IMG/VR virus record: IMGVR_UViG_3300029452_000005
DNA: 33,567 nucleotides
Direction: 5' to 3' (one strand)
From: a virus
Shown: one piece after another, positions 3,715-31,830 of the stretch
Numbering within the stretch: position 1 is the stretch's first letter
Layout of the letters: each line of letters opens with the position of its first letter
Position numbers and translations under genes: made by a program
The notes under the pieces: generated by a model
The model's database searches: none
What the model was told of the DNA's origin: nothing
What the model saw: the letters and a program-made list of their open reading frames with translations, nothing else

Positions 3715-3734
3715 TTATTCCCCCGTATGGTTCA

Positions 3735-4097: not shown

Positions 4098-4242
4098 TAC
4101 ACATTTCCCCTTTCGCTTATTCGTATCAAAGGGGCGTTTATATTGCCCCTTATCCACTACATCGTAAATACTGATACTAATTTTATTAATGCTATTACTA
4201 GCTAAAATACCAATGCAGCATCAAATAATAATTTAATCATGG

Positions 4243-12630: not shown

Positions 12631-12975
12631 ATGCTATACAACAAAATCGAGGAATTAATGCGAAAAACAGGCGTATCAGCATATCAAATTTCAAAAGATA
12701 CCAAAATTCCGCAAAGTGCATTTTCACGTTGGAAGAAAGGAGAAAGCAATCCTAGTTTAAAAAATATTAAAATATTATCGGAATATTTCGGTGTTCCAAT
12801 AGGTTATTTTACCGACGGCGTAGAGGGAGCGCCTAAAGTCAAAAAGCAAGAAATTTCTATTGATTTAAAGAAAATTACGGATAATGCTTTGATTTGTTAT
12901 TATGGTGATCGTGAATTAACGGCATCGCAAAAAGCTAAAATATCCAAAGTATTAAAAGCGGTATTAGACGATTAA
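12631..12975 (+). CDS. cI-like repressor, XRE HTH domain without a peptidase domain
   Basis: The segment MRKTGVSAYQISKDTKIPQSAFSRWKKGESNPSLKNIKILSEYFGV matches HTH_3. It is the first gene of the plus-strand lysogeny operon and is followed by an ImmA-like gene. Confidence 0.8.
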   Translation: MLYNKIEELMRKTGVSAYQISKDTKIPQSAFSRWKKGESNPSLKNIKILSEYFGVPIGYFTDGVEGAPKVKKQEISIDLKKITDNALICYYGDRELTASQKAKISKVLKAVLDD

Positions 12976-12999: not shown

Positions 13000-13344
13000 A
13001 TGTTCAATATGTGTTCTTTTGTCTTAGATTTGATTAATTCGCACGGCTCAAACGAACCGCGCCACATAGCAAGTAAATTAAATATTAAAGTTATATATAA
13101 ACCATTGCCGGCTTGCGTTAGCGGCGTAATGATTAAACCGGAGATTAAAAAGGCTATTGTTATTAATAGCCGGTTAAGTAGGCGCCAGCAGCGCATGGCG
13201 CTTGCGCATCAATTAGGGCATATATTCCTTCATAAGGATTATGATTTATTTAAGGAAATAGATAACGATTTACGCATAAAGCTGGAACATGATGCGGATA
13301 CATTCGCGCATATATTGTTAAATAAAGGGGTATACCATGAGTAA
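13000..13344 (+). CDS. ImmA/IrrE-family metallopeptidase-like protein with an HQxxH variant motif
   Basis: The segment QQRMALAHQLGHIFLH...LEHDADTFAHILL aligns with the ImmA pattern tlaHElgHi.lh...E.eAn.FA..lL. The catalytic Glu codon reads CAA (Gln) at 13210-13212. Confidence 0.75.
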   Translation: MFNMCSFVLDLINSHGSNEPRHIASKLNIKVIYKPLPACVSGVMIKPEIKKAIVINSRLSRRQQRMALAHQLGHIFLHKDYDLFKEIDNDLRIKLEHDADTFAHILLNKGVYHE

Positions 13345-13549
13345 AAAAGATGCAATTAATGTAGCCTTTTATCAAAGTATCCTGTACCTTATTATTGGTA
13401 TGATATTAGGCCTTATGTCTTGGGAAGAACACCGATATATTTTATTGCTTTTAGTAGTTGCCTTAACTGTTGGCGCTCATTACATAGCAAGTTATTCATT
13501 AAAGGAATTAGACGATGCAATGCAATATAACCATAAGAAAAAAGGATAA
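13337..13549 (+). CDS. Small two-TM membrane protein in the lysogeny operon
   Basis: Two hydrophobic helices are present (ILYLIIGMILGLM and ILLLLVVALTVGAHYI). The ATG overlaps the ImmA-like stop. Confidence 0.55.
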   Translation: MSKKDAINVAFYQSILYLIIGMILGLMSWEEHRYILLLLVVALTVGAHYIASYSLKELDDAMQYNHKKKG

Positions 13550-14567
13550 AGGGTATCAATGTATCGTTTCATACAAGGACGGTAACCGCTGGCGCCAGAA
13601 ATCTAAACAGGGTTTTGAAACGCAAAAAGCGGCAAAAATCCACGCCCAAACGATCATTGATAAACTAAAAAAGACTATCACCGCAACCGATGATAGTCTT
13701 AGAAATATAACTCTTATTGATTTTTTTAACATTTATATGAAAGAGAATAAGCCGCGTACATTTAATACATTACAGGCCTATACACGTACATTTGATATAT
13801 TTAAGCCTATATTTAACGAAAAAATAGCGAATATAACGCCGTATCAAGTTAAAAGGGTATTGAATGATAGTTTATATTCAACTACCACAAAAAACCTTGC
13901 TTTGGGTACAATTCAGCGTTTATTTAACTATGCGGCGAACCAATACAAAATAATTCCTACAAACGAATTGAAAACAATACCACGTTTTAAGGATAATGAA
14001 CCTACAAAAATAAAGGTATTATCAGATACAGAAATAGAAACATTTTTAAAAGCATTAAAACCTAAAAATTATAAATACTATGTTATATTTTCTATTGCTG
14101 CTTATACCGGCATGAGATATGGCGAAATCATTGGCCTTACTTGGGGAAATGTCGATTTGAATAACAATATTATTAATGTAGTGCAGCAATTCGGGGCGAT
14201 TGATTACAATAAATATGCCTTGAAACCGTTGAAATCTAAAAATAGTTATAGGCAACTACCTATACCGCCAATATTAACCAATATTCTAAAAGAATACAAA
14301 GAAACATGTTCGACTGAACGCCTTTTCAATAATAAAGTTAGCGCCAGCTGGGGCGCATCACGAATAATGAAAAGATTTTTACCAGATAATTCTATTCATG
14401 ATCTACGCCATACATACGCAACTAAATTATTAGCAAATGGCGTAGACATAAAAACCGTATCCGCCCTATTAGGTGATAGTATACAAACGGTCTTAATAAC
14501 ATATGTTCATTTTTCGGACGATATGCGACTAAAGGCAGCTGACAAAGTTGCCAATATTTTTGGTTAA
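13515..14567 (+). CDS. int: Tyrosine recombinase / phage integrase
   Basis: The N-terminus looks like an arm-binding domain (ITIRKKDKGYQCIVSYKDGNRWRQKSKQGF). The catalytic residues are in context: TGMRYGEI (Arg), HDLRHT (HxxR) and LITYVHF (Tyr). Confidence 0.95.
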   Translation: MQCNITIRKKDKGYQCIVSYKDGNRWRQKSKQGFETQKAAKIHAQTIIDKLKKTITATDDSLRNITLIDFFNIYMKENKPRTFNTLQAYTRTFDIFKPIFNEKIANITPYQVKRVLNDSLYSTTTKNLALGTIQRLFNYAANQYKIIPTNELKTIPRFKDNEPTKIKVLSDTEIETFLKALKPKNYKYYVIFSIAAYTGMRYGEIIGLTWGNVDLNNNIINVVQQFGAIDYNKYALKPLKSKNSYRQLPIPPILTNILKEYKETCSTERLFNNKVSASWGASRIMKRFLPDNSIHDLRHTYATKLLANGVDIKTVSALLGDSIQTVLITYVHFSDDMRLKAADKVANIFG

Positions 14568-14797
14568 TTATTTTTGACGAATTTCTGCCGTTTTAATAAC
14601 AAACCCTATTAAACATGGTACTTTATATCCTGTATTTTATATCAATATATTATATCGTATACGATAATTTTTATCCATAAAATAGCATAGTGTAGTTTTT
14701 AACTGATTGGCCAAAACGTATTTTTCAAAAATACTTCCACAAAATTATATAGTTTATTATGAAATTTTTGCCGTATTTTTGCCGGCAAATAAAAAAG
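14568..14797. other. Candidate attP region
   Basis: This is a non-coding AT-rich stretch immediately 3' of int. It contains a 14-bp palindrome TATCGTATACGATA (14653-14666), the inverted repeat GTATTTTTCAAAAATAC (14718-14734), a tandem ATTTTTGCCG x2 (14765-14785) and the palindrome TTTGCCGGCAAA (14778-14789). The crossover core cannot be defined without a host sequence. Confidence 0.35.
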
Positions 14798-14820
14798 AGG
14801 GGTACCGCTATGGTACCCCT
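14798..14820. terminator. Bidirectional intrinsic terminator between the convergent int operon and the minus-strand late operon
   Basis: A perfect 9-bp stem AGGGGTACC/GGTACCCCT encloses a 5-nt loop. On the minus strand it is followed by CTTTTTTATTT, and on the plus strand by TTCTTATT. It lies 6 nt after the stop of the 14827 gene. Confidence 0.7.
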
Positions 14821-14826
14821 TTCTTA

Positions 14827-16793: not shown

Positions 16794-19700
16794 TTATTTA
16801 ACCTTACCTAAACCATAAACGCTGCGCGCTATATTGGCTTTTCTCATATTAATTTTGTCTAATTGTTCCCTCTTTTGTTCGCCGCTCATGCGTTCATTAT
16901 TAATGATCGCCTTAGATGCTTTGTTCAAACCTTTTAGGCTATCACTTGCATTTTTGAGTTTTGCGAATTCCTTGGCATCGTATCCTTCCGGCCGTTGCCC
17001 TGTTAATTTGAATTCATTATGTAGCTTTTCTTGCTCCTTATAATCATCATATACCCTCTGTACACTATCCGATGATTGATAAGGCGCCACCGTGAACCGT
17101 CTTATGCCCGGTGCTTCATACCATTTTTTAGATGCATTATTTTCTTTTGCGCCAGAAATAGCATCAATAATGCTCAAACCGGAACCAGCAAGCCCGCCGC
17201 CATACCCTCTTATTGTATTGTCTACAATATATGGCGAAACGTTAAATTTATCACCTACGAATTTTGCTAATTCGCTTGTATTAGCGCCGTATTGTAGGCG
17301 TGCCGGTAAATTTTCCTGTGATTGTGGAATGAGATTACGTTGTCTAAACAATGATTTATTAGTCATAGCTTCAAAGGCTGGTATCATTGCAGTAGGCATA
17401 AGGCTAGGTGTCATGCTATCAATAACACGTTCACCGAAACCGTCAAACCCAACGCTTTTGCGCCCGTTTTTCTTATCGTCCATGTATTGTAACATTCTTT
17501 CAAACGCCGTGCCGAATAAAATACCAGCTTCAAATGGCTTAGGAATACGATACATATTTTCTTTCCCCGGAATAATCCAGAATGTATCTTTTTCCCATTG
17601 CGGTATTTCTTGATATCGCGGATCATCTTTATTTATATTCCATAACATAATACTAGGAAGCGTGATATAAAGAAACGCCTTAATTGTTGTACCGCGCGGG
17701 TCTTCAATAAATGTACGCGCCATTTTGTCTGTGCCTTGAATTGCAGCATTGAAAAAGGCTATTATTTGATTTAATTTCTTTGTATGCGTACCTCTACGGC
17801 TGAAATCTAGCGTTATATCACGGCTTTCAAGTGCTGCTTCGCGTGTAGATAAAGGCGCCCTTTCCTTACTGAACAAACGGTTGCCAATACTTGTATAACC
17901 TTTTTTGGCGTTATCAAATTCAGCCAACCGCGTTGCCATTTCTGTTGCTTCGCTCATAGCACGCAATGCTTCAATAGGGTTTTTAATTAACTTCGTGAAT
18001 TTGCTTTCACGTCTAACAATATCGCGAACTTTACCGCCTAAATAATCACGGTCTAACGAAACCATTGCCGCATGTGCTGCGCCGGATTTTTGGTATTCCC
18101 AGAATAAATCGCCTTTTTTTAGGTATAACGCTAGTCCCTTAAAGGTATCAACAATAGGAATAAAACCATGTTTTGAGTAAACTGTAGCGCCTATCATATC
18201 GCGTACAGGGTTACTCAAAATAAATTCTAATGACAATGTAGCGCCAGCACGTAACCAGCTTGCCGGATAAGACAATATTTTAACAACCATGTTTGATTGT
18301 TCCTTATCTAACATGCGCATAGTTTGCACTAATTCCGGCGTTGTTTCATACGTTGTCTTTTTGCCGTTTTTCCAAACATTAAAGGTATTATCTGTTGCTG
18401 CTTTGTTCCCGTGTACACGTTCGACAATTCTCCCCATTCCCGGTTTATCGGCAAGTTTTGCGAATGTACGGCCAACGTGATTGCGTTCTATTGCATTAAC
18501 AAATTGGAAGGTATTCTTTATGATACTTTCCAACGGATCAATAATATCGCGCGTACTACCTTTAAAACGTTTAACCGGACTAGATACATCAATAAAGCCT
18601 TTACTACCAGATAAGAACGATTGCATGCCAACGTCTGACATTTCACGGAAGAATGGAATATAATGCGGGTACATTTTACGCATTGCGTGATATGCCTTAA
18701 CCGTCAACATTCCTTCTTTCACTAGCATTTGCAATAGATAATCTTGATATTTATAAATTTCTTTAGCCGCCTTTCGGAAATGTTCATTGCCCGCATGTTT
18801 ACCTACAACGGCAGCATCGTCTAAATAATCAAACGTTGCTTTTTGTTTATTGCGGTGTAAATCTAAATCATGCAATGCTACAAGGTATGCGGAAAAATCT
18901 TTATGTTCCTTTTTGCTAATAGTATTTACAATTTCTTCAAGTCCTTTTATGCCACGTTCTGGTGCACCGTGTTCAAGAAGTGCTTCAGCCTTACCGGCCC
19001 AGCCACGCGCTAACCACGCTTGAAAGAACACGTTATCTTCAAACGCTATTTTTTCGCCCGTTTCTTTTTCAATTTGATCCATTAATTCTTTTAACGGGTT
19101 TAACTCATCAACAAACGCGGTATATGCTTCGCTTTTTGCTTTGGCTATTGCATCTTTAACTTCGCCACGTTTAACCGCATCAATAGCTTGGCTAACTTTC
19201 CCCTTACTTTCAAAAGAAATGCTCCCTTTGATGCGTTCCGCGCCGCCTTGACGGTGCCATTCATGAACCAGCTTCGATAATTTATTGGTGATGCCGTTTA
19301 ATTCCGGTTCTTTTACAATCGCTTCCGTAAAGTGTTTATAGAATTCTGGGAATTCCCGTTTTGCTTTGGTGCGATCACTTACATAGTCCTTAAAGAATTC
19401 TGCGTAACCTTCGCCGCGTATACCGTCAATACCTAATTTATTGTATGCTTTACCGAAACGGTCTTGAATAACGCCGTTAAATTCGGTATTGAACCGTGCA
19501 TCTTTACTGAAACCGAAATAATTATCTACATAATGCCCCAATTCATGCATGATAACCGGAATTTCGCCATAATTACCGCTACGAATTACATCGGTTTTAG
19601 TATTATACCAGCCGCGTACATTATCACGGCCCAAACGGCCACTTTTAACGCGTTGATTAAATAGGTTATTTACCGCATCAAGAATTTCCTTGCGTGTAAC

Positions 19701-22052
19701 GCTTCGGCCTAACCGCTCTACTTCATCAATGCCAGTATGTGGCGTTTCGTTACTTTTAACGCTATATTGTAGCGGTTCCGTAGGTCTAACGCCTTTACTT
19801 TCTAAATAACGATTTGCCATTGCTTCGTTGCCGTCAAAGGCTTTCACCATAGCTTCGTGTACTTGCTCATGCGTTGCATTGTCTAATAGCTGGCTAGGTT
19901 GCTGCTCGTATTTGCTCACGCCACCTTCTACCGGTTCCGCTTGTAACGTTTTAAGTTCTTGCGTATCGGTGATTAATTCGGCAGCACGTTCACGTCTAAC
20001 ATGTTCCATGTATTCATGGTTCAATGCTTCAACTGGTACGTCTAACTTTTCTGATAATTTGACTTTTACCGTTTCCAATTCCGCTTTTGGAATATCCGGT
20101 TTTGTTGCCCGGTTCAAGTCTTGCAAAATTTCTGTATTAGAATGTACTTTGTTTTCTAATTCAGTAAATCGTGTTTCAGATGCATCATTTTTTAATTCGT
20201 TTATGATAGTTTCTTTTGCTTTTTGCGGTAAATCGTCAAGCGCATTTCGTAAACTTTCGTTTGGTGCATCTTCTTCATACCTAAATTGAGTACTTGCATC
20301 GTTTTCAAGTGCTTTTTCTTCAAATTTAGGTTTTTCACCCTCTACAAAGTCAGTATTTATGCGGTCTTTCGGTTGAAATTCATTTATTTCGCCTGTACGG
20401 GCCGTTTCGCCTTCGCCTTGATAGTTTATACCTAAATCGTCAGTTTTAACCTGTTTTTTATCGGTATTTTCTACAAAACTGTTTAAATCGGTATGTGTTT
20501 CTTCGCCGCTTACTGGTTTTTCGTTTTCTATAAACTCATCTTTAAACGGTTGTTCATTACCTCTATAGTTAGGGTCTAGCGTACTATCTTTAAACGATGT
20601 ATTATCACGTGGCCTATTTTCATATTTACCATAATTGCCGTCGAATGTTTCTTTAGCAATTTGCGCCCGTACATCATCATGTGCAACTGCTGGGTCTGGT
20701 CTTTCATAATTTTTTCGTATGATAACGGCCATTTCTTCCGGTGTTGCATCTGGGCGCGCGCGCATCGCTTCAAGTGCAGCGCTTTCGGTATTGTGTAATT
20801 CCCATACGCTGAAATCAACTTGCGTTCTCCAATCCCACGGATCTAATCCGCGACTTTCCGCAAATTTTAACAAACCTTTTTCGCCGTTCAATCTGTCGCC
20901 AGTAAATTGAACCAAACCACGGGAACCGTACCCGTCGCCACTTGTAACGGTCGTATTGAAACTACTTTCGGCTCCGATATTACCAGTCATGGCAGCCGCT
21001 TCAACGTCGCTTAACCCATTTTGACGATATCGGTTATATATATCCGCTTGGATATTACCGGTTTCACCTTCCATAGGTTGACCGTTCAAACCACCTTCGG
21101 AGTATTCGCGCGGTTCTACTGCTTTAGGTTCTTCCGGTACGGGTACATCATCAAACGCGTTATACATTACGCCTTCTTCCATTGTTGGCGCATCTTTTGT
21201 AAAACGTTCGCCAATATCTTCAAAGGCATTAGATGCTTTTTCTTTGATGTGTTCCGCTGCATGTCCTACACGCTCACCGATTGCCCCGGATACCTTTTTA
21301 GGTGTTGCCCCGTGTATCATGGCAGCCGGTAAAAATACGTCGCCCCATAAATTAGTAGGGTTCATGGCTATATTTTTAGCAAATTCCCCCGGGTCGTCAA
21401 TTAAGCGTTCTACTGGCTCGGCCACAGGGTCTACTATAAGATTTTTCGCCGTAGCTACATATTTATTCCCTAAAATTCCGTCTGGTGCCGTTCCGTCATT
21501 TTCTGCGGTTGCATTGGCGTTATACATATCAACCGTATCACTTGCAATCGTAGGCGCGGCAAGAACGCCAGCAGCTATTCGCACCGGTGGTGGAACATAC
21601 GGAGTAATTGCTAGATATCCAGCCGGCTTACCAACTGCGGCGTTATAGGTTTCAACGTGCGCTTTACCTAACCCCGGTGTAGCATATTCGTCGATAAACT
21701 CCCCATTATCATCAAATTTAGAAAAGTTATCGCCATTAGCATTAATCGCATTGGCAGCACTTTTAGAATACTCATTACCTAGATTGTTCGCTTTGTTTAC
21801 TACATCATCTTTCCAGTTGGTTAACGTATTGCCTACATTGTCGTTAATTTCTTTGCCGGTTTTATCAATCCATTCAATATTATTTTTAACACCATTAGCA
21901 ACATATTCGGCATTATTTTTAACGCTATCCCAAAACGTAGGCTTGGGCGCGTTGCCTACATCATAACCGTATTCGGTTGTTATATCTTCAAAGGCGTTAC
22001 CGTTTCCAGCTGCCTTGCCGTATTGGCTTGTAATATCATCAAACGCACCCAT
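16794..22052 (-). CDS. 1752-aa virion-associated polyvalent protein (ejection / internal-protein candidate) with a tail-lysozyme domain and an HELGH zincin motif
   Basis: Residues of about 335-455 (20688-21050) read AAAMTGNIGAESSFN...SRGLVQFTGDRL...QVDFSVWEL, matching the phage tail lysozyme (Phage_lysozyme2) pattern. IPVIMHELGHYVDNYFG lies at residues 831-847 (HELGH at 19533-19547). An acidic linker spans residues of about 480-760. The C-terminal region of about 850 aa is uncharacterised. It is the last structural gene before lysis. Confidence 0.8.
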   Translation of the reverse strand: MGAFDDITSQYGKAAGNGNAFEDITTEYGYDVGNAPKPTFWDSVKNNAEYVANGVKNNIEWIDKTGKEINDNVGNTLTNWKDDVVNKANNLGNEYSKSAANAINANGDNFSKFDDNGEFIDEYATPGLGKAHVETYNAAVGKPAGYLAITPYVPPPVRIAAGVLAAPTIASDTVDMYNANATAENDGTAPDGILGNKYVATAKNLIVDPVAEPVERLIDDPGEFAKNIAMNPTNLWGDVFLPAAMIHGATPKKVSGAIGERVGHAAEHIKEKASNAFEDIGERFTKDAPTMEEGVMYNAFDDVPVPEEPKAVEPREYSEGGLNGQPMEGETGNIQADIYNRYRQNGLSDVEAAAMTGNIGAESSFNTTVTSGDGYGSRGLVQFTGDRLNGEKGLLKFAESRGLDPWDWRTQVDFSVWELHNTESAALEAMRARPDATPEEMAVIIRKNYERPDPAVAHDDVRAQIAKETFDGNYGKYENRPRDNTSFKDSTLDPNYRGNEQPFKDEFIENEKPVSGEETHTDLNSFVENTDKKQVKTDDLGINYQGEGETARTGEINEFQPKDRINTDFVEGEKPKFEEKALENDASTQFRYEEDAPNESLRNALDDLPQKAKETIINELKNDASETRFTELENKVHSNTEILQDLNRATKPDIPKAELETVKVKLSEKLDVPVEALNHEYMEHVRRERAAELITDTQELKTLQAEPVEGGVSKYEQQPSQLLDNATHEQVHEAMVKAFDGNEAMANRYLESKGVRPTEPLQYSVKSNETPHTGIDEVERLGRSVTRKEILDAVNNLFNQRVKSGRLGRDNVRGWYNTKTDVIRSGNYGEIPVIMHELGHYVDNYFGFSKDARFNTEFNGVIQDRFGKAYNKLGIDGIRGEGYAEFFKDYVSDRTKAKREFPEFYKHFTEAIVKEPELNGITNKLSKLVHEWHRQGGAERIKGSISFESKGKVSQAIDAVKRGEVKDAIAKAKSEAYTAFVDELNPLKELMDQIEKETGEKIAFEDNVFFQAWLARGWAGKAEALLEHGAPERGIKGLEEIVNTISKKEHKDFSAYLVALHDLDLHRNKQKATFDYLDDAAVVGKHAGNEHFRKAAKEIYKYQDYLLQMLVKEGMLTVKAYHAMRKMYPHYIPFFREMSDVGMQSFLSGSKGFIDVSSPVKRFKGSTRDIIDPLESIIKNTFQFVNAIERNHVGRTFAKLADKPGMGRIVERVHGNKAATDNTFNVWKNGKKTTYETTPELVQTMRMLDKEQSNMVVKILSYPASWLRAGATLSLEFILSNPVRDMIGATVYSKHGFIPIVDTFKGLALYLKKGDLFWEYQKSGAAHAAMVSLDRDYLGGKVRDIVRRESKFTKLIKNPIEALRAMSEATEMATRLAEFDNAKKGYTSIGNRLFSKERAPLSTREAALESRDITLDFSRRGTHTKKLNQIIAFFNAAIQGTDKMARTFIEDPRGTTIKAFLYITLPSIMLWNINKDDPRYQEIPQWEKDTFWIIPGKENMYRIPKPFEAGILFGTAFERMLQYMDDKKNGRKSVGFDGFGERVIDSMTPSLMPTAMIPAFEAMTNKSLFRQRNLIPQSQENLPARLQYGANTSELAKFVGDKFNVSPYIVDNTIRGYGGGLAGSGLSIIDAISGAKENNASKKWYEAPGIRRFTVAPYQSSDSVQRVYDDYKEQEKLHNEFKLTGQRPEGYDAKEFAKLKNASDSLKGLNKASKAIINNERMSGEQKREQLDKINMRKANIARSVYGLGKVK

Positions 22053-22069: not shown

Positions 22070-23731
22070 TTAATAAGACTTTAACCACGATTTATATTGA
22101 CCGTATCCGGCCGCATCAAGTTCCGCCGCAATCTGATCATCACTCCAGCCTTGCGCTGAAAGTTCATTCATTCGCTTGGAAATTGCTGCTTGTTCTTCGC
22201 TTGAATAAGTAGGTTGCCGTTTAACCGTTGGCGTTCCAGCAGCACCACCACCGCCAGCAGTAGGCGCACCACTTAACGCACTTTGTAATTGCCCGTAATA
22301 AGGACTTTCAGTTTCCGCTTTATCTGGGTTAGCTTTCACCCATGCGGTATGCTGCGCGGAAAGTGTACGTAATACTTGCGCATTATATCCGCTAGTGCCG
22401 GACTGTGTAGCCGTTGCCGGTTTAACGTGAGTACCTACATATTTCATGCTGCCGTCTGTTCCAACAATATACGTTTTACCGTCTGGCATAACTTTAATGT
22501 TTTTAGCCCCGAAATTACCGATATTTTTCATTTGGCCGTCTGGTGTCATAACAATAACTTGACCGTTCGCAAATTGTTTTGTTTCAACCTTGCCATAACC
22601 GCCCATATCTTGAATAGTACCGTCGCCCATGTTGTATCGTACAATATGGCCGTTTTGCGCACTACTGAATTTATAATCCGGTTTATCCAACGCCGCAATA
22701 GAATTCAAGTTATTCATATCAATAGTACCAGCGCCAATCTTACCGGCAAGGTAGTTGTATCTTGCAACGGCTGGCGCCAATCCTTTAACCCGTTTTGTGT
22801 TATAGGTATCTACAACCGGGTTGCCGTCTTTATCCTGTGTAAATACAAGATTGTTCATGATTTGCTGGCGCATTGGTTCAAGCACTTTTTCTTGATATTC
22901 GTTGACTTGCTGCATGTACATATTATTAACGTCAGTTTGATATTGTTCGCTGGCTAACCCTTGCGCCGTCTTAAAATCAAAACCGGCTTTAACTAGGGCC
23001 AACGTATTGGCCCCTAGTTGTTTACGTGCTTCGCTTGTTACGCTTGCTTTATCTGGTATAGAGTATTGGCCCGGCGCTTTATCCGCATCAGTATTACCAT
23101 TTTCTACCGATTTGGGCGCCCCATGAAAAGGTACGTTCGCCCGTTGTTGCATCATTTCTTGATATGATTGCGGTACCCCTGTATTAATACCAGTATTATT
23201 TAGATTTTGAAAATTCCATAACCCCGTGTTTTGTTGCGGTTGCGCTGGCGCCGCTGGCATTTGTGGTGCTTGCGCTGCCTGTGCTTGCAACTGCTTTTGT
23301 AATGTAGGGCTTGGCTCATTCATATAAGCGTTAAAGCGTTGATCAGTAACAGGGTTAGCCGGTGCATCTGTGTTAGCTTGCATCGGTTGTGCTGGTGCGG
23401 CTGGATTTTGACCGCCCCATAAACCGATATTATTCTTTTGCATCAAGTTATTGGCAAATGTGTTATTGGAATTAGATAATAACTGGTTGATTTGACCGGC
23501 GCTATTAGGTTGTTGCATACCCATTCCCGCCATGCGGTTATTATTATCCACAATTTGCGGCGTGTTCGGGTCTTGTTCGCCGCCAGCACCACCGCCACCG
23601 CCTAGCATTGCTTGATAGCCTTTAGCCATTTTGTTATTCTGCAATGCACCTAAACGATGTGAGAAATATTGACCAGCTAATTCGCCTAACGCCGCCCATG
23701 GTTCAAAATCTTTTACGTAGATAACGCCCAT
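22070..23731 (-). CDS. 553-aa N/Q/P/A-rich putative ejection (internal virion) protein
   Basis: The N-terminal half is low-complexity (poly-Gly, PQMPAAPAQPQQN, runs of N and Q). The C-terminal half has repeated DG-containing beta-hairpin-like units (VMTPDGQMKNIG, VMPDGKTYIVGTDGSMKYVG). The function is assigned by position only. Confidence 0.6.
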   Translation of the reverse strand: MGVIYVKDFEPWAALGELAGQYFSHRLGALQNNKMAKGYQAMLGGGGGAGGEQDPNTPQIVDNNNRMAGMGMQQPNSAGQINQLLSNSNNTFANNLMQKNNIGLWGGQNPAAPAQPMQANTDAPANPVTDQRFNAYMNEPSPTLQKQLQAQAAQAPQMPAAPAQPQQNTGLWNFQNLNNTGINTGVPQSYQEMMQQRANVPFHGAPKSVENGNTDADKAPGQYSIPDKASVTSEARKQLGANTLALVKAGFDFKTAQGLASEQYQTDVNNMYMQQVNEYQEKVLEPMRQQIMNNLVFTQDKDGNPVVDTYNTKRVKGLAPAVARYNYLAGKIGAGTIDMNNLNSIAALDKPDYKFSSAQNGHIVRYNMGDGTIQDMGGYGKVETKQFANGQVIVMTPDGQMKNIGNFGAKNIKVMPDGKTYIVGTDGSMKYVGTHVKPATATQSGTSGYNAQVLRTLSAQHTAWVKANPDKAETESPYYGQLQSALSGAPTAGGGGAAGTPTVKRQPTYSSEEQAAISKRMNELSAQGWSDDQIAAELDAAGYGQYKSWLKSY

Positions 23732-23735
23732 TGTG

Positions 23736-25295
23736 TTATTCCTCTACTTTCTTATTATCTTCGGTTGCTTCCTCTACTGGTTCATCTTTCTTGCTGGATT
23801 TTTTAGTTGTTTTTTTAGCTGGCTTTTCTTCCGCTGGCGCTTCTTCCGCTGCATCTGCAATAGCTTTCAATTCATCTTCGTTGATACCTTCGGCCATAAT
23901 ACCGTTAGCATAGAATAAATTATCGCCAGTACATTGCAATTCGTATACGTGTTCAGTATTGCCAGTTGCTTCGCTTAATGTAACCGGTTCATAAGCATTA
24001 ACCGTCATAATAACTTCGCCAACTACCAATTCACTAACTAATTTTAAGCCTTCCGGAGTTAATACCTTTTCTGTGCCTGTGGTTGTTACGCCAAAAGATA
24101 CAGTTTCAAGGCGATGTGTTTCTTTTTCGCCCATATCATGCAATGCAATTACATCATTAACCGCACCCAACGTGATAACAGTATCACCATTTACAAACGT
24201 TTCAATAACCTTGCCACCTTCTGGTGTTGCAATTTCAGTACCCGCTACAAAACAAAAACCTTTCATAAGTCCTCCAAAGAAACCGCCAGAACCTTGCTTA
24301 ACCATTGTTTGTGCTGGTTGTGCTAGTCCATAGCGTAATGACATAAATCTGTTAAGTAATTCTTCTTGATCCGCGTTATTTAACTGGCTCATAGAGTAGT
24401 AATCTTTGGCCGGTTGAATAGCTGCGCTTTGTGTTGTTGCGCCTGTATTAATAGGGTTTTGCGCTAACCCTTCGCGTTGACCTACCAAACCCGCTGCGGT
24501 GCCGGCGTTATTCATCTGATTTGCATAACCTTGGTTCATTAGATTTGCTTGATTGATGATGCCGTTTTGGTTGTTATTGTAGGTATTACCCCATAACCCC
24601 ATTTTTGCACCGATACCGCTTAAATTATTATTAAGCGCTTGCGTATTAAGTGCAGCCGCTTGGCCTAAATCATTTGAATATTGTGCCGCAAGTGTATTAG
24701 ATGCGTTCTTGCTAATATCATTTAATGCATTATCTGTAATAGATGAATTCACAATGCCGCGACTTGCTAGGCCAGAAACTGCATTGCCTACAGTTGCCTG
24801 TAAATCATTGTTTAACGCTTGCCGTCTAGCATCTGCATAGCCTGTTGGTAGTTGGCCGTTTGTGATGCTATTCATTGCGTTTTGATTATTAAGCAATGCG
24901 CCGTTATATTCGTTAGCCAGTTGGCTTGCGCCGTTGTTCATAGTATCAACGCTTGCCGCTAACTGATTTGCATACCGCGTGTTATCAGTTAAATTCTTGG
25001 CGCCGGCCGTAGAAACTTGATTTTGTAACGCGCCGATTGCATTTTGATTGCCGCGGTTAGCGCCTAAATACGAATTATACATATTACCGTATTCTGGCGT
25101 TATCACATTATTCAAGGCCGCATCGCCCATACCTTGCAAGGTGTTGGCGCTTCGATTGGTGTTATTAATCCAATCCATTTGGCCTTGTAATAGTTGCTTT
25201 TCGTCGGCCGTTGCCGTAGGCAATTTCGCATCAATGCTGCTTACCTTCGACTTTTTACCGCCGCCGCCAAATAATTGCAAGTCAAATTTAAACAT
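23736..25295 (-). CDS. 519-aa N/Q-rich protein with a C-terminal Hint (intein-like) domain and a charged tail; putative ejection protein
   Basis: The N-terminus is MFKFDLQLFGGGG. Residues of about 40-330 are N/Q/A/G-rich. Residues 348-469 read CFVAGTEIATPEG...TGTEKVLTPEGLKLVSELVVGEVI...VYELQCTGDNLFYANGIMAEG, a Hint-fold pattern. The last 50 aa are K/E-rich. Confidence 0.7.
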   Translation of the reverse strand: MFKFDLQLFGGGGKKSKVSSIDAKLPTATADEKQLLQGQMDWINNTNRSANTLQGMGDAALNNVITPEYGNMYNSYLGANRGNQNAIGALQNQVSTAGAKNLTDNTRYANQLAASVDTMNNGASQLANEYNGALLNNQNAMNSITNGQLPTGYADARRQALNNDLQATVGNAVSGLASRGIVNSSITDNALNDISKNASNTLAAQYSNDLGQAAALNTQALNNNLSGIGAKMGLWGNTYNNNQNGIINQANLMNQGYANQMNNAGTAAGLVGQREGLAQNPINTGATTQSAAIQPAKDYYSMSQLNNADQEELLNRFMSLRYGLAQPAQTMVKQGSGGFFGGLMKGFCFVAGTEIATPEGGKVIETFVNGDTVITLGAVNDVIALHDMGEKETHRLETVSFGVTTTGTEKVLTPEGLKLVSELVVGEVIMTVNAYEPVTLSEATGNTEHVYELQCTGDNLFYANGIMAEGINEDELKAIADAAEEAPAEEKPAKKTTKKSSKKDEPVEEATEDNKKVEE

Positions 25296-25306
25296 GCTTT
25301 TCCTTT

Positions 25307-25723
25307 CTACAAAGTTGCTTCAAGGTGTTTTCGCACCGTCTTTAGCACTTTGTAATTAAACCCATTATAGGTATAGTCCATAATTGGAACGCGTTCCATG
25401 TTCCACTTTTTAATGAAACCGCGCACGCTTCGATGTGTTGCCGTTACAATTACATCAAGATCATTCATCTTCATTACTTCCACGATGTACTTCCCTATTA
25501 CTTTCATATCACCGTATGTCTGCCAGATAGTAAAATACCGTTGGCCGTCATGTTCGTTGATAGTCCAGAACAAGAACCCAGCATTAGGAAACCATTTGAA
25601 ATAGTAATTGTATTTGTCTTTGTAGTTATTATTTTCATCGAAATAAAACCCCTCAAGACTAACACGTTCACCCGTGCGCCGTTCATAGTCTTTTATCATG
25701 CTTTCAAGGCTTTCAAGTTGCAT
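25307..25723 (-). CDS. Hypothetical protein (138 aa) inside the tail module
   Basis: The ORF is tightly packed. The sequence has a globular-enzyme look with a weak GNAT-like tail (HRSVRGFIKKWNMERV). No firm assignment is possible. Confidence 0.55.
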   Translation of the reverse strand: MQLESLESMIKDYERRTGERVSLEGFYFDENNNYKDKYNYYFKWFPNAGFLFWTINEHDGQRYFTIWQTYGDMKVIGKYIVEVMKMNDLDVIVTATHRSVRGFIKKWNMERVPIMDYTYNGFNYKVLKTVRKHLEATL

Positions 25724-25725
25724 TC

Positions 25726-26211
25726 TTAATCCCCTATCCGTTCAATCGTTACTTTATTCCAGTTATAACCAGATACGACGTAATCATTGAATACACCGCT
25801 TATGGAACATTCTAAACGCTTGTTATTCGTAGAACCCGGGAAACTGATTGATACGGTTCTATTCCCGCTATCATTAACATTGATATCCCAACTTCTGTTA
25901 TTTCTACCGTCAAGCGTTACGCGATACCGACCTTTAGGGAAAAATAAAGTTGTACCGTATCCGCTTGTATCACTTGCACGGCGTTCCCAATAATAGCGCG
26001 CAAATTCTATGGCATCATATTGGATATAACGTATCTGGCCGTTCACTTCGATTTTTAACGGTGTTACATCATTTCCATATCGTGCGTAGTAATCAACGCC
26101 GTTATATGGTACTGGTACTGCCTTACCATTTGTTACGGATTTATCTGTGTTAAGTCCGAAACGGTATGTTTGACCGTTTTTTTCTAATACGATATTAGGC
26201 ATATTATTCAA
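25726..26211 (-). CDS. Beta-rich hypothetical protein (161 aa), tail-fibre-associated candidate
   Basis: It overlaps the fibre gene stop by 8 nt. It is N/G/Y/R-rich and looks beta-rich. The role is assigned by position. Confidence 0.5.
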   Translation of the reverse strand: MNNMPNIVLEKNGQTYRFGLNTDKSVTNGKAVPVPYNGVDYYARYGNDVTPLKIEVNGQIRYIQYDAIEFARYYWERRASDTSGYGTTLFFPKGRYRVTLDGRNNRSWDINVNDSGNRTVSISFPGSTNNKRLECSISGVFNDYVVSGYNWNKVTIERIGD

Positions 26212-27454
26212 TCCTCAATTTAGCGCCATTCGGGAATGTCAACGTATTGTTATTTTCAAACGTGGCTATACGCTGCCATTCGTTCATGCCCTTGGTATTT
26301 GTATCAAAACGAATAAATGCCGCGTTACTGTTAGCAAAGTAAAGTTGAGTACCTAGTATGCGGTCTTGGCTTGTATACCACGGAAACATGGCGCCAATAC
26401 CCCAATAAGCAGTACCCCATATGTTGTAGTTATTTAATTCGCCAAACGTAAAGCCACTATAACCAGCCTTGTTGTTAGCAAGATAATCTAAATCAATCGA
26501 ATTACTGGAAAGGCCCGGAACCTTTAACGTACCCGTCATAGTATCGCCGGCCTTTTTAACGCACGTCGCAACGTTATCCGCCGTTGCGGCTGAACCGGCC
26601 CGCGTTGCCGTATCTGCACTAACCGCATGAGTTGCGTTGGCTACTGTATCAGTTTTGCGATAATATGTGCTACTCAATCCGTTTACCGTATCCGTGATAG
26701 TTTTTAATGTACGGCTTGGGTTATTTGTGAAACTAGCATCACCAGCTATCTTTTTAATAGCTTCCGCCATTTGATTAAGAATATCTGTTAATGCATACGC
26801 TTTACCGTCAACCGTACGTGTACCAATTACGGCATCTGTTGCGGTGTTTACGTTTGGATCATAATATTTGATTGACTTTACACGCGTTGCATCTGTAACG
26901 GCAATCGCTACCACTACGCGCAATATTTCTTTCCAATATGTGCCGGTGTACACATACATTTTTTCATTTGTAGTGTTGTAGTACATTTTATCCGTTGCCG
27001 CTGCTGGTGCATTTGGCTGGCGCATCGGTTCAAGCGTTGTACTGCCATAAGTTAGGCCGCCAGATGCTGAACGCTCAACGTATAAGTACGACGTATTATT
27101 GGCCGGTAAACTCCATGCGCTTTGCTTACGGTTAATCGTTTGGGTATAATCAACCGCGCCGTAATCGTTGAAACCGTCGGCGAATGATAACAATACAGGC
27201 GTTTGGCTGCCGTCAATCATTACGCTTAGGTTATCGCCTGTTAAGAATGAAAATTCACCATTGCTTACTTTACCACTCAACACTCTATTACGTAGGCCAC
27301 CAGTACCACCACCGCCACCAGTACCACCACCGCCGGCTTTGAGTTCTATTTGTTGCGCAACGTTCAATAATTCATCGCGGTTTTTCTTAATACTATCTTG
27401 TACAGTATCGCCCTGTGGCGTTATATCCAAAGGGTATTTTTCTTTATATGCCAT
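26204..27454 (-). CDS. Tail fibre protein
   Basis: It contains the widespread tail-fibre motif KKAGDTMTGTLKV, a Gly-rich hinge (GGGGTGGGGGTGG) after an N-terminal attachment segment, and a C-terminal beta-rich domain. Confidence 0.75.
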   Translation of the reverse strand: MAYKEKYPLDITPQGDTVQDSIKKNRDELLNVAQQIELKAGGGGTGGGGGTGGLRNRVLSGKVSNGEFSFLTGDNLSVMIDGSQTPVLLSFADGFNDYGAVDYTQTINRKQSAWSLPANNTSYLYVERSASGGLTYGSTTLEPMRQPNAPAAATDKMYYNTTNEKMYVYTGTYWKEILRVVVAIAVTDATRVKSIKYYDPNVNTATDAVIGTRTVDGKAYALTDILNQMAEAIKKIAGDASFTNNPSRTLKTITDTVNGLSSTYYRKTDTVANATHAVSADTATRAGSAATADNVATCVKKAGDTMTGTLKVPGLSSNSIDLDYLANNKAGYSGFTFGELNNYNIWGTAYWGIGAMFPWYTSQDRILGTQLYFANSNAAFIRFDTNTKGMNEWQRIATFENNNTLTFPNGAKLRIE

Positions 27455-27456
27455 GT

Positions 27457-28875
27457 TTAAACCTCTTCATACGTATAATCTAACTGGCGTAACGAAATAG
27501 CGCCCTTTTGAACATTGATTTTAAATTGTACATTACGATTTGCACCGCCGCCAATCTTATACGCCTTCGTGTACTCATTAATATTCATTAATGTTTTGGC
27601 TTCGTATAGCTTTTCATTCGCATAGTAGGTCTTTGTTGCCTTGCTTGAAAAATTAATTGGCTTAGGCTTCTTATTCGATATGCCAATAGTGCCATAACCG
27701 GGAATAAGATTATGCGTTACAAAATTATAGTTCATAATCAACACAAATTGACGTGTCGCCAATCTGTTGCCGCTGATAATTGATGTTTGGATTTGTTTCG
27801 TATCATCTGTATCTATTGTTTCGTCAAGAATACCAATCTTATTTCCGTACGCTATATATACTTCTTTATCCACATTCACCGCATCATTGATGTTATGCGT
27901 GAATTTTCTTGATGTGAAAACGCCCCTTCCGTCCTCATATCGTGGCAAGTAGTGATAGATAAATACCGTATCGCCGTTATATGGTTTAATCCAGATTTGT
28001 TTTCTACTGGATATGTGCCATACCTCGCAATCTTTCGTTATGTACTTCAACAAATAAGAGTTGATATTTAGGCCAGTTTCAAATGGTTGTATTTCTGCAT
28101 AGGTGTTAGTAGGCATGAAAGACATGAACCCTTGATTGCCTAAATAGTAACTACGATCATCAACGCTCACCGTTGCACCGCTACAATAACCGGTAGAGGA
28201 TAAAGGATATACGGTTAAATTCTGCGCATCTGGCGTTCCAATTACTTGATACACGCGCCCGTATTCTTTGTATACGATAATTGCACGTGATAAGAAATCA
28301 ATCGCAATGATGCTGCCTTGGTCTTTATAGCCAACGTCTACATATTGCGCGCTTGATGCATCATTTGAGTTGTGAGTCCATGCGTTGTAGTCGCCAACTG
28401 CCGACCAATTCAACCTATGCGAATGAGTTGATGCAATCAGTACACGGCCGGAATGACTTGATACTATATCACATACAGGACTTTCAATAGTGGATAACTT
28501 ACCAGCACCCGAAATGGCTTGCAATTTATCACCGCTGGCGATGAGAATATCACCACCAAACGCATGATATCTTGGGCGTTCGGTACCATTTAATGTGCCT
28601 AATAGTGTATTACCGCTAAAATCTGTTTCATACAAATTTCGGCCACTAGAAAAGTACCACTTATTACGGTACACATCATGGTATAGCGTTTCTATTGGTA
28701 GTCCAAAATCATACAATATACGAATACCCGGAACGGTACGGAGTGCGTTGTCTGTTCTATCGAATTCGCATTGTTGCGCCTGTGTTAGTGCTTGCACGTC
28801 GATATTTTCCGGCGGGTTGCTCCAATCAAGGCCCAGCCGGAACCCGTTTGTAGTTGCCACCTGTTTAACGCCCAT
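27457..28875 (-). CDS. Tail hub / tail tube protein (P22 gp10-like, tentative)
   Basis: It is 472 aa and follows the two adaptor-sized genes in P22 order. It has a repetitive beta-propeller-like sequence (for example RAIIVYKEYGRVYQVIGTPDAQNLTVYPLSSTGYC). The similarity to gp10 is judged from memory, not computed. Confidence 0.4.
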   Translation of the reverse strand: MGVKQVATTNGFRLGLDWSNPPENIDVQALTQAQQCEFDRTDNALRTVPGIRILYDFGLPIETLYHDVYRNKWYFSSGRNLYETDFSGNTLLGTLNGTERPRYHAFGGDILIASGDKLQAISGAGKLSTIESPVCDIVSSHSGRVLIASTHSHRLNWSAVGDYNAWTHNSNDASSAQYVDVGYKDQGSIIAIDFLSRAIIVYKEYGRVYQVIGTPDAQNLTVYPLSSTGYCSGATVSVDDRSYYLGNQGFMSFMPTNTYAEIQPFETGLNINSYLLKYITKDCEVWHISSRKQIWIKPYNGDTVFIYHYLPRYEDGRGVFTSRKFTHNINDAVNVDKEVYIAYGNKIGILDETIDTDDTKQIQTSIISGNRLATRQFVLIMNYNFVTHNLIPGYGTIGISNKKPKPINFSSKATKTYYANEKLYEAKTLMNINEYTKAYKIGGGANRNVQFKINVQKGAISLRQLDYTYEEV

Positions 28876-29348
28876 TATGCTATACCTCTTGCCGCCTTAA
28901 TCTGTTCCGTTATGTAGTCAATGAATTGTTTATCATATGCAGCATAATCCGTCATAAGCGACTTCTTTTTAACCATGAAAGATATAAGCTGCACTAAATA
29001 CTGATGAAAGAATTCAGAAAACGGAATAGGGTCGTCTAAATCATCAACGTGATTTTTACGAACACTATAAAATACTTCTTTAACCGTTTCCCCGTCATAG
29101 GTTTCAAAGGTTCCATTAATGATGCGAATAGGATAACCACTCTTAGGAACAAACCCCATAAAATCGGACGGTACGCCTTTTAGGTTAGGTATATCTGTAT
29201 TCTTAACTACTTCACGGTCTTTAATACTAACAAGGATAGTAGTTAGCCAATCAATAGCGGCGTTAATGTACTGGATATATTCCAATTGTTCGTCAAGTAT
29301 TTCGTTTGACTCTACATTAACAAGAGTAATCAATTCGCTTACAACCAT
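28875..29348 (-). CDS. Head-tail adaptor / head-completion candidate (157 aa from the ATG at 29348)
   Basis: Its size and position between the capsid gene and the tail hub resemble P22 gp4. The track start at 29369 is a TTG. Confidence 0.4.
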   Translation of the reverse strand: MVVSELITLVNVESNEILDEQLEYIQYINAAIDWLTTILVSIKDREVVKNTDIPNLKGVPSDFMGFVPKSGYPIRIINGTFETYDGETVKEVFYSVRKNHVDDLDDPIPFSEFFHQYLVQLISFMVKKKSLMTDYAAYDKQFIDYITEQIKAARGIA

Positions 29349-29874
29349 AACTCCAATACCCTTCCGCAATTACGCTTTCATTATTCCCCAAACCTTCATT
29401 AATGGATTGCAACGCATTAACCATATTCGCCGTTACGCCGGAAATATCAAGGTTCATAACCCTATATACGATGTAATCAACTAATAACGTCTCTAATTCT
29501 GCCGGTAGTCCGCTTTCATCATCTAGCTTCTTATATCCGGCAGTCATTATATAATCAACGGTTATTTTCTGCTCATGATCTGCATCAAATACTATCGTTT
29601 GTAAATTTAATACATGATAGGCCTGTACGTCCACATCATCTGCTTTGACATTTAACACGCTTATACATTGACCGGGCAGCGTAATCCGTCCGGTGCCGTT
29701 ATCTTCGTGCGTTGCCTGTGCCAAACTAGGGCAGTACTGACCGATAAGGGCATTTAATAGGTGATTGCCTTCGTTGTAATACTCCAATAATTGATATGGT
29801 GTATACGTTTCTTGCGATGTATCACCTATTTGCATGAACGCCCTATTTACTATTTGCTTTACGTTCATATTCAC
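29317..29874 (-). CDS. Head-tail connector / head-completion candidate (185 aa)
   Basis: It is the first gene after the major capsid terminator. The N-terminus VKQIVNRAFMQIGD...YTPYQLLEYYNEG resembles gp6-like connector proteins. The role is assigned by position. Confidence 0.4.
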   Translation of the reverse strand: MNMNVKQIVNRAFMQIGDTSQETYTPYQLLEYYNEGNHLLNALIGQYCPSLAQATHEDNGTGRITLPGQCISVLNVKADDVDVQAYHVLNLQTIVFDADHEQKITVDYIMTAGYKKLDDESGLPAELETLLVDYIVYRVMNLDISGVTANMVNALQSINEGLGNNESVIAEGYWSYGCKRIDYSC

Positions 29875-30915: not shown

Positions 30916-31830
30916 TTATAATTCGTCAAAATATTTGCGTACATCGTCCGGCAATGCATCAAGGTTGCCCGTTTGGTACGCTTTCAAAATATCTTCTTCC
31001 GTTACCTTGTTAGGTGTAGGAACGCCACCATTTAACGCGCCAGCTTTTGGCAACGTCGCCGCAACTTGTAAAGGGTTGTTCGGTACTTCGGTACTTGTCG
31101 CCCGTTCATTTTGCAATTCTGTAACAAACTTTCTGATAGTTTCAAAATCGGCTTCCGTACCTTCGCCGATATCAACACGATAAAAAGCATCGTTAATCGG
31201 TTGTGCATCGCGCATCGTCATTCCGTTTAGCTTTTCTAAACCACGTTGATATAATTCCCCAAAGTTCGGCAATGATTTAATTTCATTTACGAAATTTAAG
31301 TTAGTTTGTCTTTGTTGATGTACCGCCATTTGCTGATTTGTAATTGTGTATTCTGCGTTGGCTTCAAAACGAATGAAATCGTTATACTTCTGTACATCTT
31401 CAAACATAAGACTTTCTAAATCTTCCGCCGTTAAATTAAAGCGTTTCAATGCTTCACGGCGTACAAAGTCGCGGATATCAGATACTTCACTATCTGGCAA
31501 TGTAATCGGTCTTTGTTGCGCTTCGAATTGTCTTGCGCGTTCCTCGGCCGCTTTACGTCTTGCGCGTTCCTGTGCAAGTGCCGCTTTTAGATTGTTATCG
31601 TTTGTATGGTTTTCTTCGTGTTCCGGTTCTTCTTCATTAGTGTTAGGCGTCGCTGCATCTACTTCCGCATCATTCGCATCACTTTCCGCCGCATCATCTG
31701 TAGAGGGTTCATCTGTTGCCGCTTCTGGTGTATCCGTTTCTTCGGTATGTTCATCAACGTTCACGCCCGCGTTTTCTAAATCTTCCGGAGTGAAACCAGC
31801 ATCTTCGATATTAACTAAATCTTTTTCCAT
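30916..31830 (-). CDS. Scaffolding protein
   Basis: It lies between portal and capsid. It has an extremely acidic N-terminal third followed by helical charged segments (KAALAQERARRKAAEERARQFEAQQ). An AAGGAG SD precedes it. Confidence 0.7.
   Translation of the reverse strand: MEKDLVNIEDAGFTPEDLENAGVNVDEHTEETDTPEAATDEPSTDDAAESDANDAEVDAATPNTNEEEPEHEENHTNDNNLKAALAQERARRKAAEERARQFEAQQRPITLPDSEVSDIRDFVRREALKRFNLTAEDLESLMFEDVQKYNDFIRFEANAEYTITNQQMAVHQQRQTNLNFVNEIKSLPNFGELYQRGLEKLNGMTMRDAQPINDAFYRVDIGEGTEADFETIRKFVTELQNERATSTEVPNNPLQVAATLPKAGALNGGVPTPNKVTEEDILKAYQTGNLDALPDDVRKYFDEL

Follow-up and report, generated by a model that had tools for sequence, protein, structure and literature searches.

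A cysteine-free phage-type polyvalent protein with predicted lysozyme and lethal factor-like zincin domains, probably ejected by a temperate Veillonella phage

Introduction

The virus record IMGVR_UViG_3300029452_000005 of IMG/VR, a stretch of 33,567 nucleotides referred to here as the window, contains an uninterrupted open reading frame (ORF) for a giant protein of 1752 residues on its minus strand (16794-22052), with an ATG start at 22052 and the ribosome-binding site AAAGGGG about 7 nt 5' of it. The question raised by this locus is what kind of protein this gene encodes, and where in the infection cycle it acts. A preliminary description of the DNA, which left the strand unstated, had presented the product as a polyvalent virion protein combining a tail lysozyme domain, a HELGH zincin motif, and about 850 residues of unassigned sequence, and had estimated that the gene takes up about 16% of the genome. 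This estimate holds: the window ends (1-99 and 33469-33567) form an exact 99-bp overlap, which indicates a circular assembly with 33,468 bp of unique sequence, and the 5259 nt of the gene represent 15.7% of this circular phage genome. Public metagenomes hold more than 120 clusters of the protein at 89-96% identity, all of them intact and full-length and mostly found on contigs of ~34 kb, which shows that the ORF is maintained by selection and that the phage is a common one.

A Constant C-Terminal Module with Variable Cargo

By its sequence, the giant protein is a phage-type polyvalent protein, a class described in 2017 (PMC5512222). It holds the LPD38 domain (PF18857) at residues 1477-1648 with a score above the Pfam gathering threshold (E-value 7e-43; 147.3 bits versus a cut-off of 27), it combines at least two unrelated biochemical activities (lysozyme and zincin) with domain shuffling among its homologues, and its gene is one of the late virion genes in a phage with portal and terminase. 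In the original treatment of the class, LPD38 and lysozyme are confined to phage-type polyvalent proteins (Iyer et al. 2017, PMC5512222). The residues that had been left unassigned are mostly a known module, the hallmark of the class, since PHROG 9854 (function unknown) spans residues 793-1744 (E 3e-154) in addition to the LPD38 match. The protein is thus less novel than the preliminary description implied.

An exhaustive search with residues 770-1752 (clusters at 50% identity, E ≤ 1e-3) retrieved 15,741 clusters, 6,170 of them at E ≤ 1e-30, and the top 150 proteins were taken as family representatives. The end of the module lies at most 15 residues from the C-terminus in 87% of these representatives and at most 40 residues in 94%, and the N-terminal extension ahead of it ranges from 0 to 3030 residues. 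The zincin region is present in 138 of the 150, with an intact HExxH in all 133 that are aligned at the motif. It holds a fixed register with the rest of the module, a large helical body, and is invariant even where the cargo bears no muralytic domain. In 19 members, which are among the largest and most diverse of the family, LPD38 was found without exception (19 of 19), with N-terminal parts that include Sno/SNF2/ResIII helicases, ART-PolyVal, ddrB-ParB, SLT and other transglycosylases, PBECR1, methyltransferase, LPD3, and beta-clamp domains. This distribution argues that residues 787-1752 are a constant C-terminal module of ~960 residues, that the zincin belongs to this chassis and not to the cargo, and that the N-terminal cargo—which includes the lysozyme in this protein—is variable. 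The earlier suggestion of a protease coupled to the muralytic domain as an effector-like cargo is not borne out by this arrangement, in which the lysozyme is the variable part.

An AlphaFold 2 (AF2) model of residues 770-1752 (983 residues, built with 76 diverse sequences) predicts that the zincin and the helical body fold as one compact unit, with a mean predicted local distance difference test (pLDDT) of 89.9 and a predicted template modelling score (pTM) of 0.86. Foldseek found no relative of the helical body among the solved structures of the PDB (best E 0.55). Membrane transporters, which gave long Foldseek alignments at a probability of at most 0.07, were rejected as all-alpha noise. Profile searches of PDB sequences returned only lethal factor and compositional matches to TolA and CFAP46, and dozens of viral models in BFVD resemble the body at template modelling scores of 0.6-0.8.

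Close and distant homologues carry the public names "Type I restriction enzyme methylase" or "DNA methylase" (e.g., P0044, P0048, BFVD A0A8S5RE05, and the phage records H4, H18, H20, and H23). Pfam detects no methyltransferase domain in the window protein, and the name appears to have been carried over from polyvalent proteins that do have one.

A Lethal Factor-Like Zincin

The HELGH motif occupies residues 836-840, as the E837 numbering of the preliminary description had implied, within the stretch IPVIMHELGHYVDNYFG (residues 831-847). Six residues (H836, E837, H840, R824, E881, and P902) are invariant in the 133 representatives, which are mutually at most 50% identical, and another four (G839, E857, A884, and E885) are conserved in 97-99% of them, with D843 present in 68%. 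The AF2 model gives the zincin core a topology of one helix, three strands, the HExxH helix, and further helices (H18-28, E33-35, E45-48, E53-56, H62-77, and H83-101 in model numbering; pLDDT 86-97), where the motif sits on model helix 62-77, corresponding to residues 831-846.

Profile comparison with PDB sequences points to anthrax lethal factor (LF), at E 9e-4 for its isolated catalytic fragment and 0.012 for the full-length protein, followed by C. difficile Zmp1/PPEP-1 (0.047) and MtfA (0.1). In these alignments, HExxH lies opposite the HEFGH of LF, and E881 opposite a glutamate that we take to be E735, the third zinc ligand. Foldseek with the 983-residue query also returned local LF matches (probability 0.90-0.91), whose poor E-values of ~0.7-0.9 are attributed to the size of the query, together with weaker matches to a M. 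tuberculosis regulator (6cyj and related entries) and to Deinococcus PprI. None of the Pfam peptidase models (including MPTase-PolyVal, ATLF, and Peptidase_M78) matches residues 770-939 at E ≤ 10 or the whole protein at E ≤ 1. On the combined strength of conservation, profiles, and model, HELGH is concluded to be a genuine zincin site of the gluzincin type (HExxH plus a downstream Glu) and of the LF kind, outside the curated Pfam families, for which proteolysis is predicted.

The domain shares with LF and Zmp1/PPEP-1—whose catalytic domains presumably both belong to MEROPS family M34—the HExxH helix and the Glu on a later helix, and with LF also an Asp three residues after HExxH. Unlike LF, Zmp1, MtfA, and IrrE/PprI, to which its matches are marginal (E 9e-4 to 0.1), it holds the invariant R824 in its third strand and is packed on a large helical body. 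A widespread clade of phage-type metallopeptidases with an Asp three residues after HExxH has been described (PMC5512222). D843 fits this Asp, but no counterpart is seen of the His that the clade conserves at the end of strand 2, and the third strand has the invariant R824 instead.

The zincin could alternatively be a peptidoglycan peptidase, in which case the giant protein would be bifunctionally muralytic, as a glycosidase and a peptidase. Such a combination of a lysozyme and a peptidase domain is presumably present in phi29 gp13, and it has been suggested in a preprint that the metallopeptidase of phi24B gp47 degrades peptidoglycan (bioRxiv 10.64898/2026.04.10.717836). A murein substrate is nevertheless improbable, because the zincin remains constant where muralytic cargo is lacking. 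Furthermore, its closest solved relatives by profile and fold (LF, Zmp1/Pro-Pro endopeptidase, MtfA, and IrrE/PprI) all act, to our knowledge, on proteins or peptides rather than on murein. Within the polyvalent class, the zincin is the commonest domain, and a role in processing the giant protein itself has been proposed for it (Iyer et al. 2017, PMC5512222).

The Lysozyme Domain and the Acidic Linker

The tail lysozyme pattern that had been noticed at about residues 335-455 is present as quoted, with the motifs GNIGAESSFN (357-366), GLVQFTG (379-385), and QVDFSVWEL (411-419), and it is covered by the Pfam family Phage_lysozyme2 (PF18013) at residues 335-471 (E 4e-24; 85.8 bits versus a cut-off of 28.2). 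In the phmmer alignment to gp13 of phage phi29 (tail morphogenesis protein 1; PDB 3csr and 3csq), E362 is placed opposite E45, which we take to be the catalytic glutamate of gp13. The only real match of the N-terminal half in a Foldseek search of the PDB was again gp13 (3csq_D; probability 1.00, E 0.02, 25% identity). Sequence and model hence both assign residues 335-471 to a lysozyme domain of the phi29 gp13 family and fold, with predicted muralytic activity. Both proteins join a lysozyme and a metallopeptidase, and both would serve as virion proteins in the penetration of the cell wall. However, gp13 is presumably a tail-knob protein of 365 residues whose peptidase is a murein endopeptidase of the M23/LytM type, unlike the LF-type HExxH zincin of the window protein, which is located inside a 960-residue module that has no counterpart in gp13.

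The lysozyme region is also the origin of matches to PHROG families annotated as "tail length tape measure protein" (phrog_9570, 2e-13; phrog_19487, 0.008), which, along with the large size of the protein, might be taken to indicate the tape measure of a long-tailed phage carrying a lysozyme domain. These matches, however, span only residues 311-476. The gene closes the structural block and is followed by lysis genes rather than by distal-tail genes, the searches revealed no family of tube, sheath, or chaperone proteins, the C-terminal 983 residues are modelled as a compact globule (pTM 0.86) and not as an extended helix, and homologues are found in podophages. A tape-measure role, already dismissed in the preliminary description, can be set aside almost entirely.

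The segment between lysozyme and zincin had been described as an acidic linker of roughly 280 residues. It is indeed acidic, but its length is 315 residues. AF2 gives it a pLDDT below 50 over residues 476-625 and helices at 626-704, and its resemblance to the helical domain of TolA is one of composition only. A second HExxH is found at residue 728, inside this linker. Neither Pfam nor NCBIfam assigns the zincin, the linker, or the conserved N-terminal domain described below.

Virion Association and Ejection

The giant protein has no cysteine in its 1752 residues, about 16 being expected from the 0.89% found in the other proteins of the phage. Cysteine is also absent from 114 of the 150 family representatives (750-4034 residues), and from the relatives Bcep22 gp75 (0 of 4602), Page gp20, and HTVC204P gp40. 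The same holds for proteins proven to be ejected, such as the N4 virion RNA polymerase (vRNAP; 0 of 3500), T7 gp15 (0 of 747) and gp16 (0 of 1318), and P22 gp7, gp20, and gp16. The lack of cysteine may therefore be useful for recognising proteins that travel through the tail channel, and, as an argument by analogy, gives circumstantial support to the ejection of the giant protein.

Some homologues holding the module or LPD38 are known from purified virions, which lends weight, by analogy, to the designation of the window protein as a polyvalent virion protein. JC1 gp69 was identified through 51 unique peptides from CsCl-purified virions (PMC9144972), and this protein of 4515 residues bears a lytic transglycosylase (LT)-like domain at 80-192 and LPD38 at 4195-4401. 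The LPD38-bearing gp47 of phi24B is abundant in virions and absent from the cryo-electron microscopy density, and its authors proposed it as an encapsidated ejection protein (bioRxiv 10.64898/2026.04.10.717836). Bcep22 gp75 (4602 residues) gives a collinear match to the hidden Markov model (HMM) of the module at 3704-4596 (E 4.5e-36), with HExxH at 3552. Regarding gene order, Page gp20 has the same placement as the window gene, at the end of the structural block before the lysis genes, and gp40 of the Pelagibacter podophage HTVC204P is encoded downstream of the tail tubular genes and an annotated internal virion protein, directly before a putative tail fibre, which is the position of T7 gene 16.

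Like gp75 of Burkholderia phage Bcep22, JC1 gp69, and gp47 of the Stx phage phi24B, the window protein combines a C-terminal LPD38, a zincin upstream of it, and an N-terminal peptidoglycan hydrolase, and its gene lies at the end of the virion block before lysis. It differs from them in size (1752 versus 2811-4602 residues), in the type of hydrolase (Phage_lysozyme2 versus SLT/LT), in the lack of methyltransferase or helicase ("DarB-like") cargo, and in its host, a Negativicute instead of a proteobacterium, and the identity is ~25-30% or less. With T7 gp16, P22 gp7, gp20, and gp16, and N4 vRNAP it shares being the largest virion-block protein of a short-tailed phage, free of cysteine and encoded at a comparable position, and with T7 gp16 also the possession of a murein hydrolase. 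The hydrolase family and its place in the protein are nonetheless different, and HMM searches see no zincin-LPD38 module in the T7, P22, and N4 proteins. The proposed equivalence with the ejection proteins of T7 and P22 consequently stands for position and function, but not for sequence similarity, which was not found.

Taken together, these observations favour, with a probability of roughly 0.65, a model in which the giant protein is packed in the capsid and leaves it at infection through the portal and the tail channel, ahead of or together with the DNA. The C-terminal chassis (residues 787-1752) would bring the protein into the particle and out of it again, and the N-terminal half would be the variable cargo, represented here by the N-terminal domain and the phi29 gp13-type lysozyme. 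Veillonella, the host (see below), is a Negativicute with an outer membrane (diderm), and a short-tailed phage must therefore cross outer membrane, murein, and inner membrane. The lysozyme would cut the murein locally, so that the conduit extending from the short tail reaches the inner membrane. The zincin would most likely act on protein, not on peptidoglycan, either by self-processing at the flexible linkers or by cleavage of host proteins. For this phage we infer the packaging, the ejection, the entry role of the lysozyme, and the protease substrate, and it is analogy, not homology to T7 or P22, that supports an ejection protein.

Several points weigh against this model. T7 gp14-16 and P22 gp7, gp20, and gp16 show no homology to the module (HMM with filters off, E ≥ 0.13; BLASTP, E ≥ 0.4). 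A metallopeptidase has been placed in the C-terminal region of N4 vRNAP (Iyer et al. 2017, PMC5512222), and a homology with this region was rejected at the sequence level (HMM with filters off, E 1; hhalign against N4 residues 2130-2448, probability 7%). The association with virions comes by analogy from JC1 gp69 and phi24B gp47. No tail, portal-plug, or other ejection proteins are identifiable among the neighbouring genes with PHROGs, Pfam, NCBIfam, or tblastn. The protease is dispensable for the core function of the family, since Page gp20 (L001, 9364-14403) and HTVC204P gp40 (L002, 10987-14748) match from query residue ~940 onward and contain no HExxH anywhere. Dozens of Arg, Asp, Asn, and Glu residues never vary in the helical body, and these could equally fit an unknown enzymatic function or a passive chassis. 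The AF2 model of the N-terminal 786 residues (mean pLDDT 48) is usable for the lysozyme alone. Finally, a role as a membrane channel is not indicated, since no segment of the protein reaches transmembrane strength (maximum 19-residue Kyte-Doolittle mean of 1.22).

A different location would be that of a fixed tail-tip enzyme, which digests the wall from outside and never enters the cell. The only solved relative of the N-terminal half, phi29 gp13, is presumably a tail-knob protein, Pfam calls the family "phage tail lysozyme", and PHROG tape-measure families share the domain. On the other hand, phi24B gp47 is missing from the resolved tail and capsid density despite its abundance in virions, and the methyltransferases, helicases, ADP-ribosyltransferases, and ParB nucleases carried as cargo in the family need cytoplasmic targets. 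The family is also cysteine-free in the manner of proven ejected proteins, and a half-disordered protein of 195 kDa would be odd as a fixed part of the tail, so that this location is considered rather unlikely.

Even less probable is a non-packaged late protein that acts inside the producing cell in anti-defence or in support of lysis, for instance as an auxiliary murein hydrolase. The gene does adjoin the lysis cassette, and detection in virions is known for homologues, not for the window phage. Contrary to this idea, those homologues come from purified virions, the phage has its own holin and GH25 endolysin, and neither a signal peptide nor a transmembrane segment is evident in the giant protein. 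Late expression would, in addition, come too late for anti-defence unless the protein were packaged for the next infection.

The N-Terminal Domain and Its Bracketing Motifs

Ahead of the lysozyme, the protein holds a helical N-terminal domain of ~200 residues for which there is no Pfam model. With an iterated HMM, it was detected in 32 of the 150 representatives (E 1e-39 to 1e-63), always starting at residues 12-134. Because of this fixed location at the N-terminus, the subfamily with the domain appears to be built of two constant ends and a variable middle.

The extreme N-termini of the family are unrelated in sequence, yet 45.5% of them contain a duplicated 6-mer that starts in the first 13 residues, compared with 1.4% of internal windows and 2.3% of shuffled N-termini (Mann-Whitney p ~1e-32). 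Many members repeat their lineage-specific peptide as a further pair 200-400 residues downstream. Thus, AF[DE]DI occurs in the window protein at 3, 20, 276, and 299, and other members show FDDFSP at 2, 14, 248, and 261, NPF[FL]KY at 3, 21, 245, and 277, or ITDDPQ at 2, 24, 200, and 258. At least two further copies of a protein's own motif are found in residues 180-430 in 17.7% of cases, versus 0.42% for foreign motifs (p 3e-15). Among the proteins with the N-terminal domain, a shared 6-mer flanks the domain in 51.5%, versus 8.3% of controls (p 7e-7). Both pairs of the window protein are located in low-confidence, probably flexible segments of the AF2 model. The terms cysteine, tandem, and N-terminal motif are absent from the text of Iyer et al. 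2017, which has "cleavage site" in its reference list alone (PMC5512222).

All copies of the motif change in concert between lineages, a pattern that implies recognition by a co-evolving partner. The protease acting in cis is one candidate for this partner. A virion component to which the motif docks is no less likely a partner, because HTVC204P gp40 clearly holds the motif without having the zincin, although the tandem motif is found in only one of the 12 representatives without a zincin match. As a speculative extension, which we regard as doubtful, the two constant ends might form a programmable delivery system, with the C-terminal module as the active machine and the motifs either as its cleavage sites, releasing the N-terminal domain and the cargo after ejection, or as peptides for docking to the portal or the capsid. 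If this were true, a family of more than 15,000 clusters would share an undescribed targeting and release code for phage-injected proteins.

Genomic Context, Host, and Variation

The features of the giant protein and of the lysogeny module are collected in Table 1. The late genes of the minus strand are ordered as large terminase, P22-like portal, capsid protein of the Phage_capsid_3 family, a series of unannotatable ORFs, the giant gene, holin, GH25 endolysin, and a 190-residue ORF. The giant gene, the last of the structural block, is separated by 17 nt from the preceding 553-residue ORF and by 11 nt from the holin that follows it. Past the end of the late operon, a strong bidirectional terminator (14796-14822) divides this operon from the lysogeny module. 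There, the plus strand encodes an integrase together with a M78 protein of the ImmA/IrrE type and a helix-turn-helix (HTH) repressor, which identify the window as a temperate phage. The 658-residue portal gene crosses the junction of the circle and is intact, and the ORF list gives only a 429-residue piece of it. A scaffold gene is placed at 30916-31830.

Table 1. Positions of the features of the giant protein and of the lysogeny module in the window.
Feature	Residues	Window position	Strand	Remarks
N-terminal tandem peptide pair 1 (AFDDIT ... AFEDIT)	3-25	21978-22046	-	low-confidence, probably flexible; AF2 pLDDT ~29
Conserved helical N-terminal domain	~30-275	21228-21965	-	iterated HMM; AF2 pLDDT 50-72
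Tandem peptide pair 2 (AFEDIG ... AFDDVP), between N-terminal domain and lysozyme	276-305	21138-21227	-	pLDDT 26-38
Lysozyme, Phage_lysozyme2 / phi29 gp13 N-domain type	335-471	20640-21050	-	Pfam, phmmer, Foldseek; predicted catalytic Glu E362
Acidic linker	472-786	19695-20639	-	21.6% D+E, net charge -27
Zincin metallopeptidase domain (predicted)	787-935	19248-19694	-	HELGH at 19533-19547; predicted ligands H836, H840, E881; predicted base E837
Helical body of the C-terminal module	936-1752	16797-19247	-	Pfam LPD38 at residues 1477-1648 (17109-17624)
HTH repressor		12631-12975	+	lysogeny module
ImmA/IrrE-type M78 zincin		13000-13344	+	lysogeny module; second zincin of the genome, unrelated to that of the giant protein
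Integrase		13515-14567	+	lysogeny module

The host of this phage is Veillonella, since the genes flanking an integrated prophage copy (L003) encode HU, MazG, and glycosyltransferase proteins identical to those of Veillonella, and since a prophage in a metagenome-assembled genome of V. parvula encodes a full-length homologue of the giant protein with 74% identity. A megablast search of E. coli genomes was without a match. The relatives of the capsid protein are found in phages of the Bcep22, PEp14, and LASTA types (Phage_capsid_3 lineage), so that the likeness to Bcep22-type phages extends to the capsid family. Regarding morphology, the Bcep22-like phage JC1 has the C1 podovirus morphotype (PMC9144972), and the Bacillus phage Page is a podophage by electron microscopy (PMC3990757).

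The six to seven structural ORFs at 22070-29369 (553, 519, 138, 161, 416, 472, and 164 residues) have no match in PHROGs, Pfam, or NCBIfam other than a weak one to Hint_2 in the 519-residue ORF, and tblastn of the 553- and 472-residue ORFs against 50,697 phage records gave zero matches, which leaves the tail of an abundant Veillonella phage essentially uncharacterised by these searches. Within this region, the 161-residue ORF (25726-26211) shares only 49% identity with its counterpart in close contigs, compared with 96-98% for its neighbours, and the last ~47 residues of the 519-residue protein (23736-25295), which has the N-terminus MFKFDLQLFGGGG, diverge as well. The 161-residue ORF and the 3' end of the 519-residue ORF are probably a swapped host-recognition cassette.

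In the giant gene, the window allele of residues ~950-1650 (window ~17100-19200) is 11-29% different from the population majority, whereas residues 1-600 differ by only 1-7% and the genes flanking the giant gene share 96-98% identity with those of related contigs. This contrast indicates, as far as can be judged from the sequences, recombination inside the giant gene.

Significance

With the giant protein, a known class gains a further member, and the general picture of phage biology stays unchanged. As a compact member of the class, with 1752 residues and the lysozyme as its sole recognisable cargo, encoded by an abundant temperate phage of Veillonella—a genus of the human mouth and gut—it offers a tractable model for a module that is found in more than 15,000 clusters and for which there is neither a solved structure nor, apart from the name LPD38, a known function. 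The presence in this module of a predicted LF-like zincin that Pfam does not cover leads to a hypothesis of protein processing, as opposed to the peptidoglycan peptidase proposed in the phi24B preprint. The absence of cysteine and the bracketing motifs are simple signatures, and they could help to recognise the ejected proteins of uncultured phages, together with the sites that serve the targeting or processing of these proteins.

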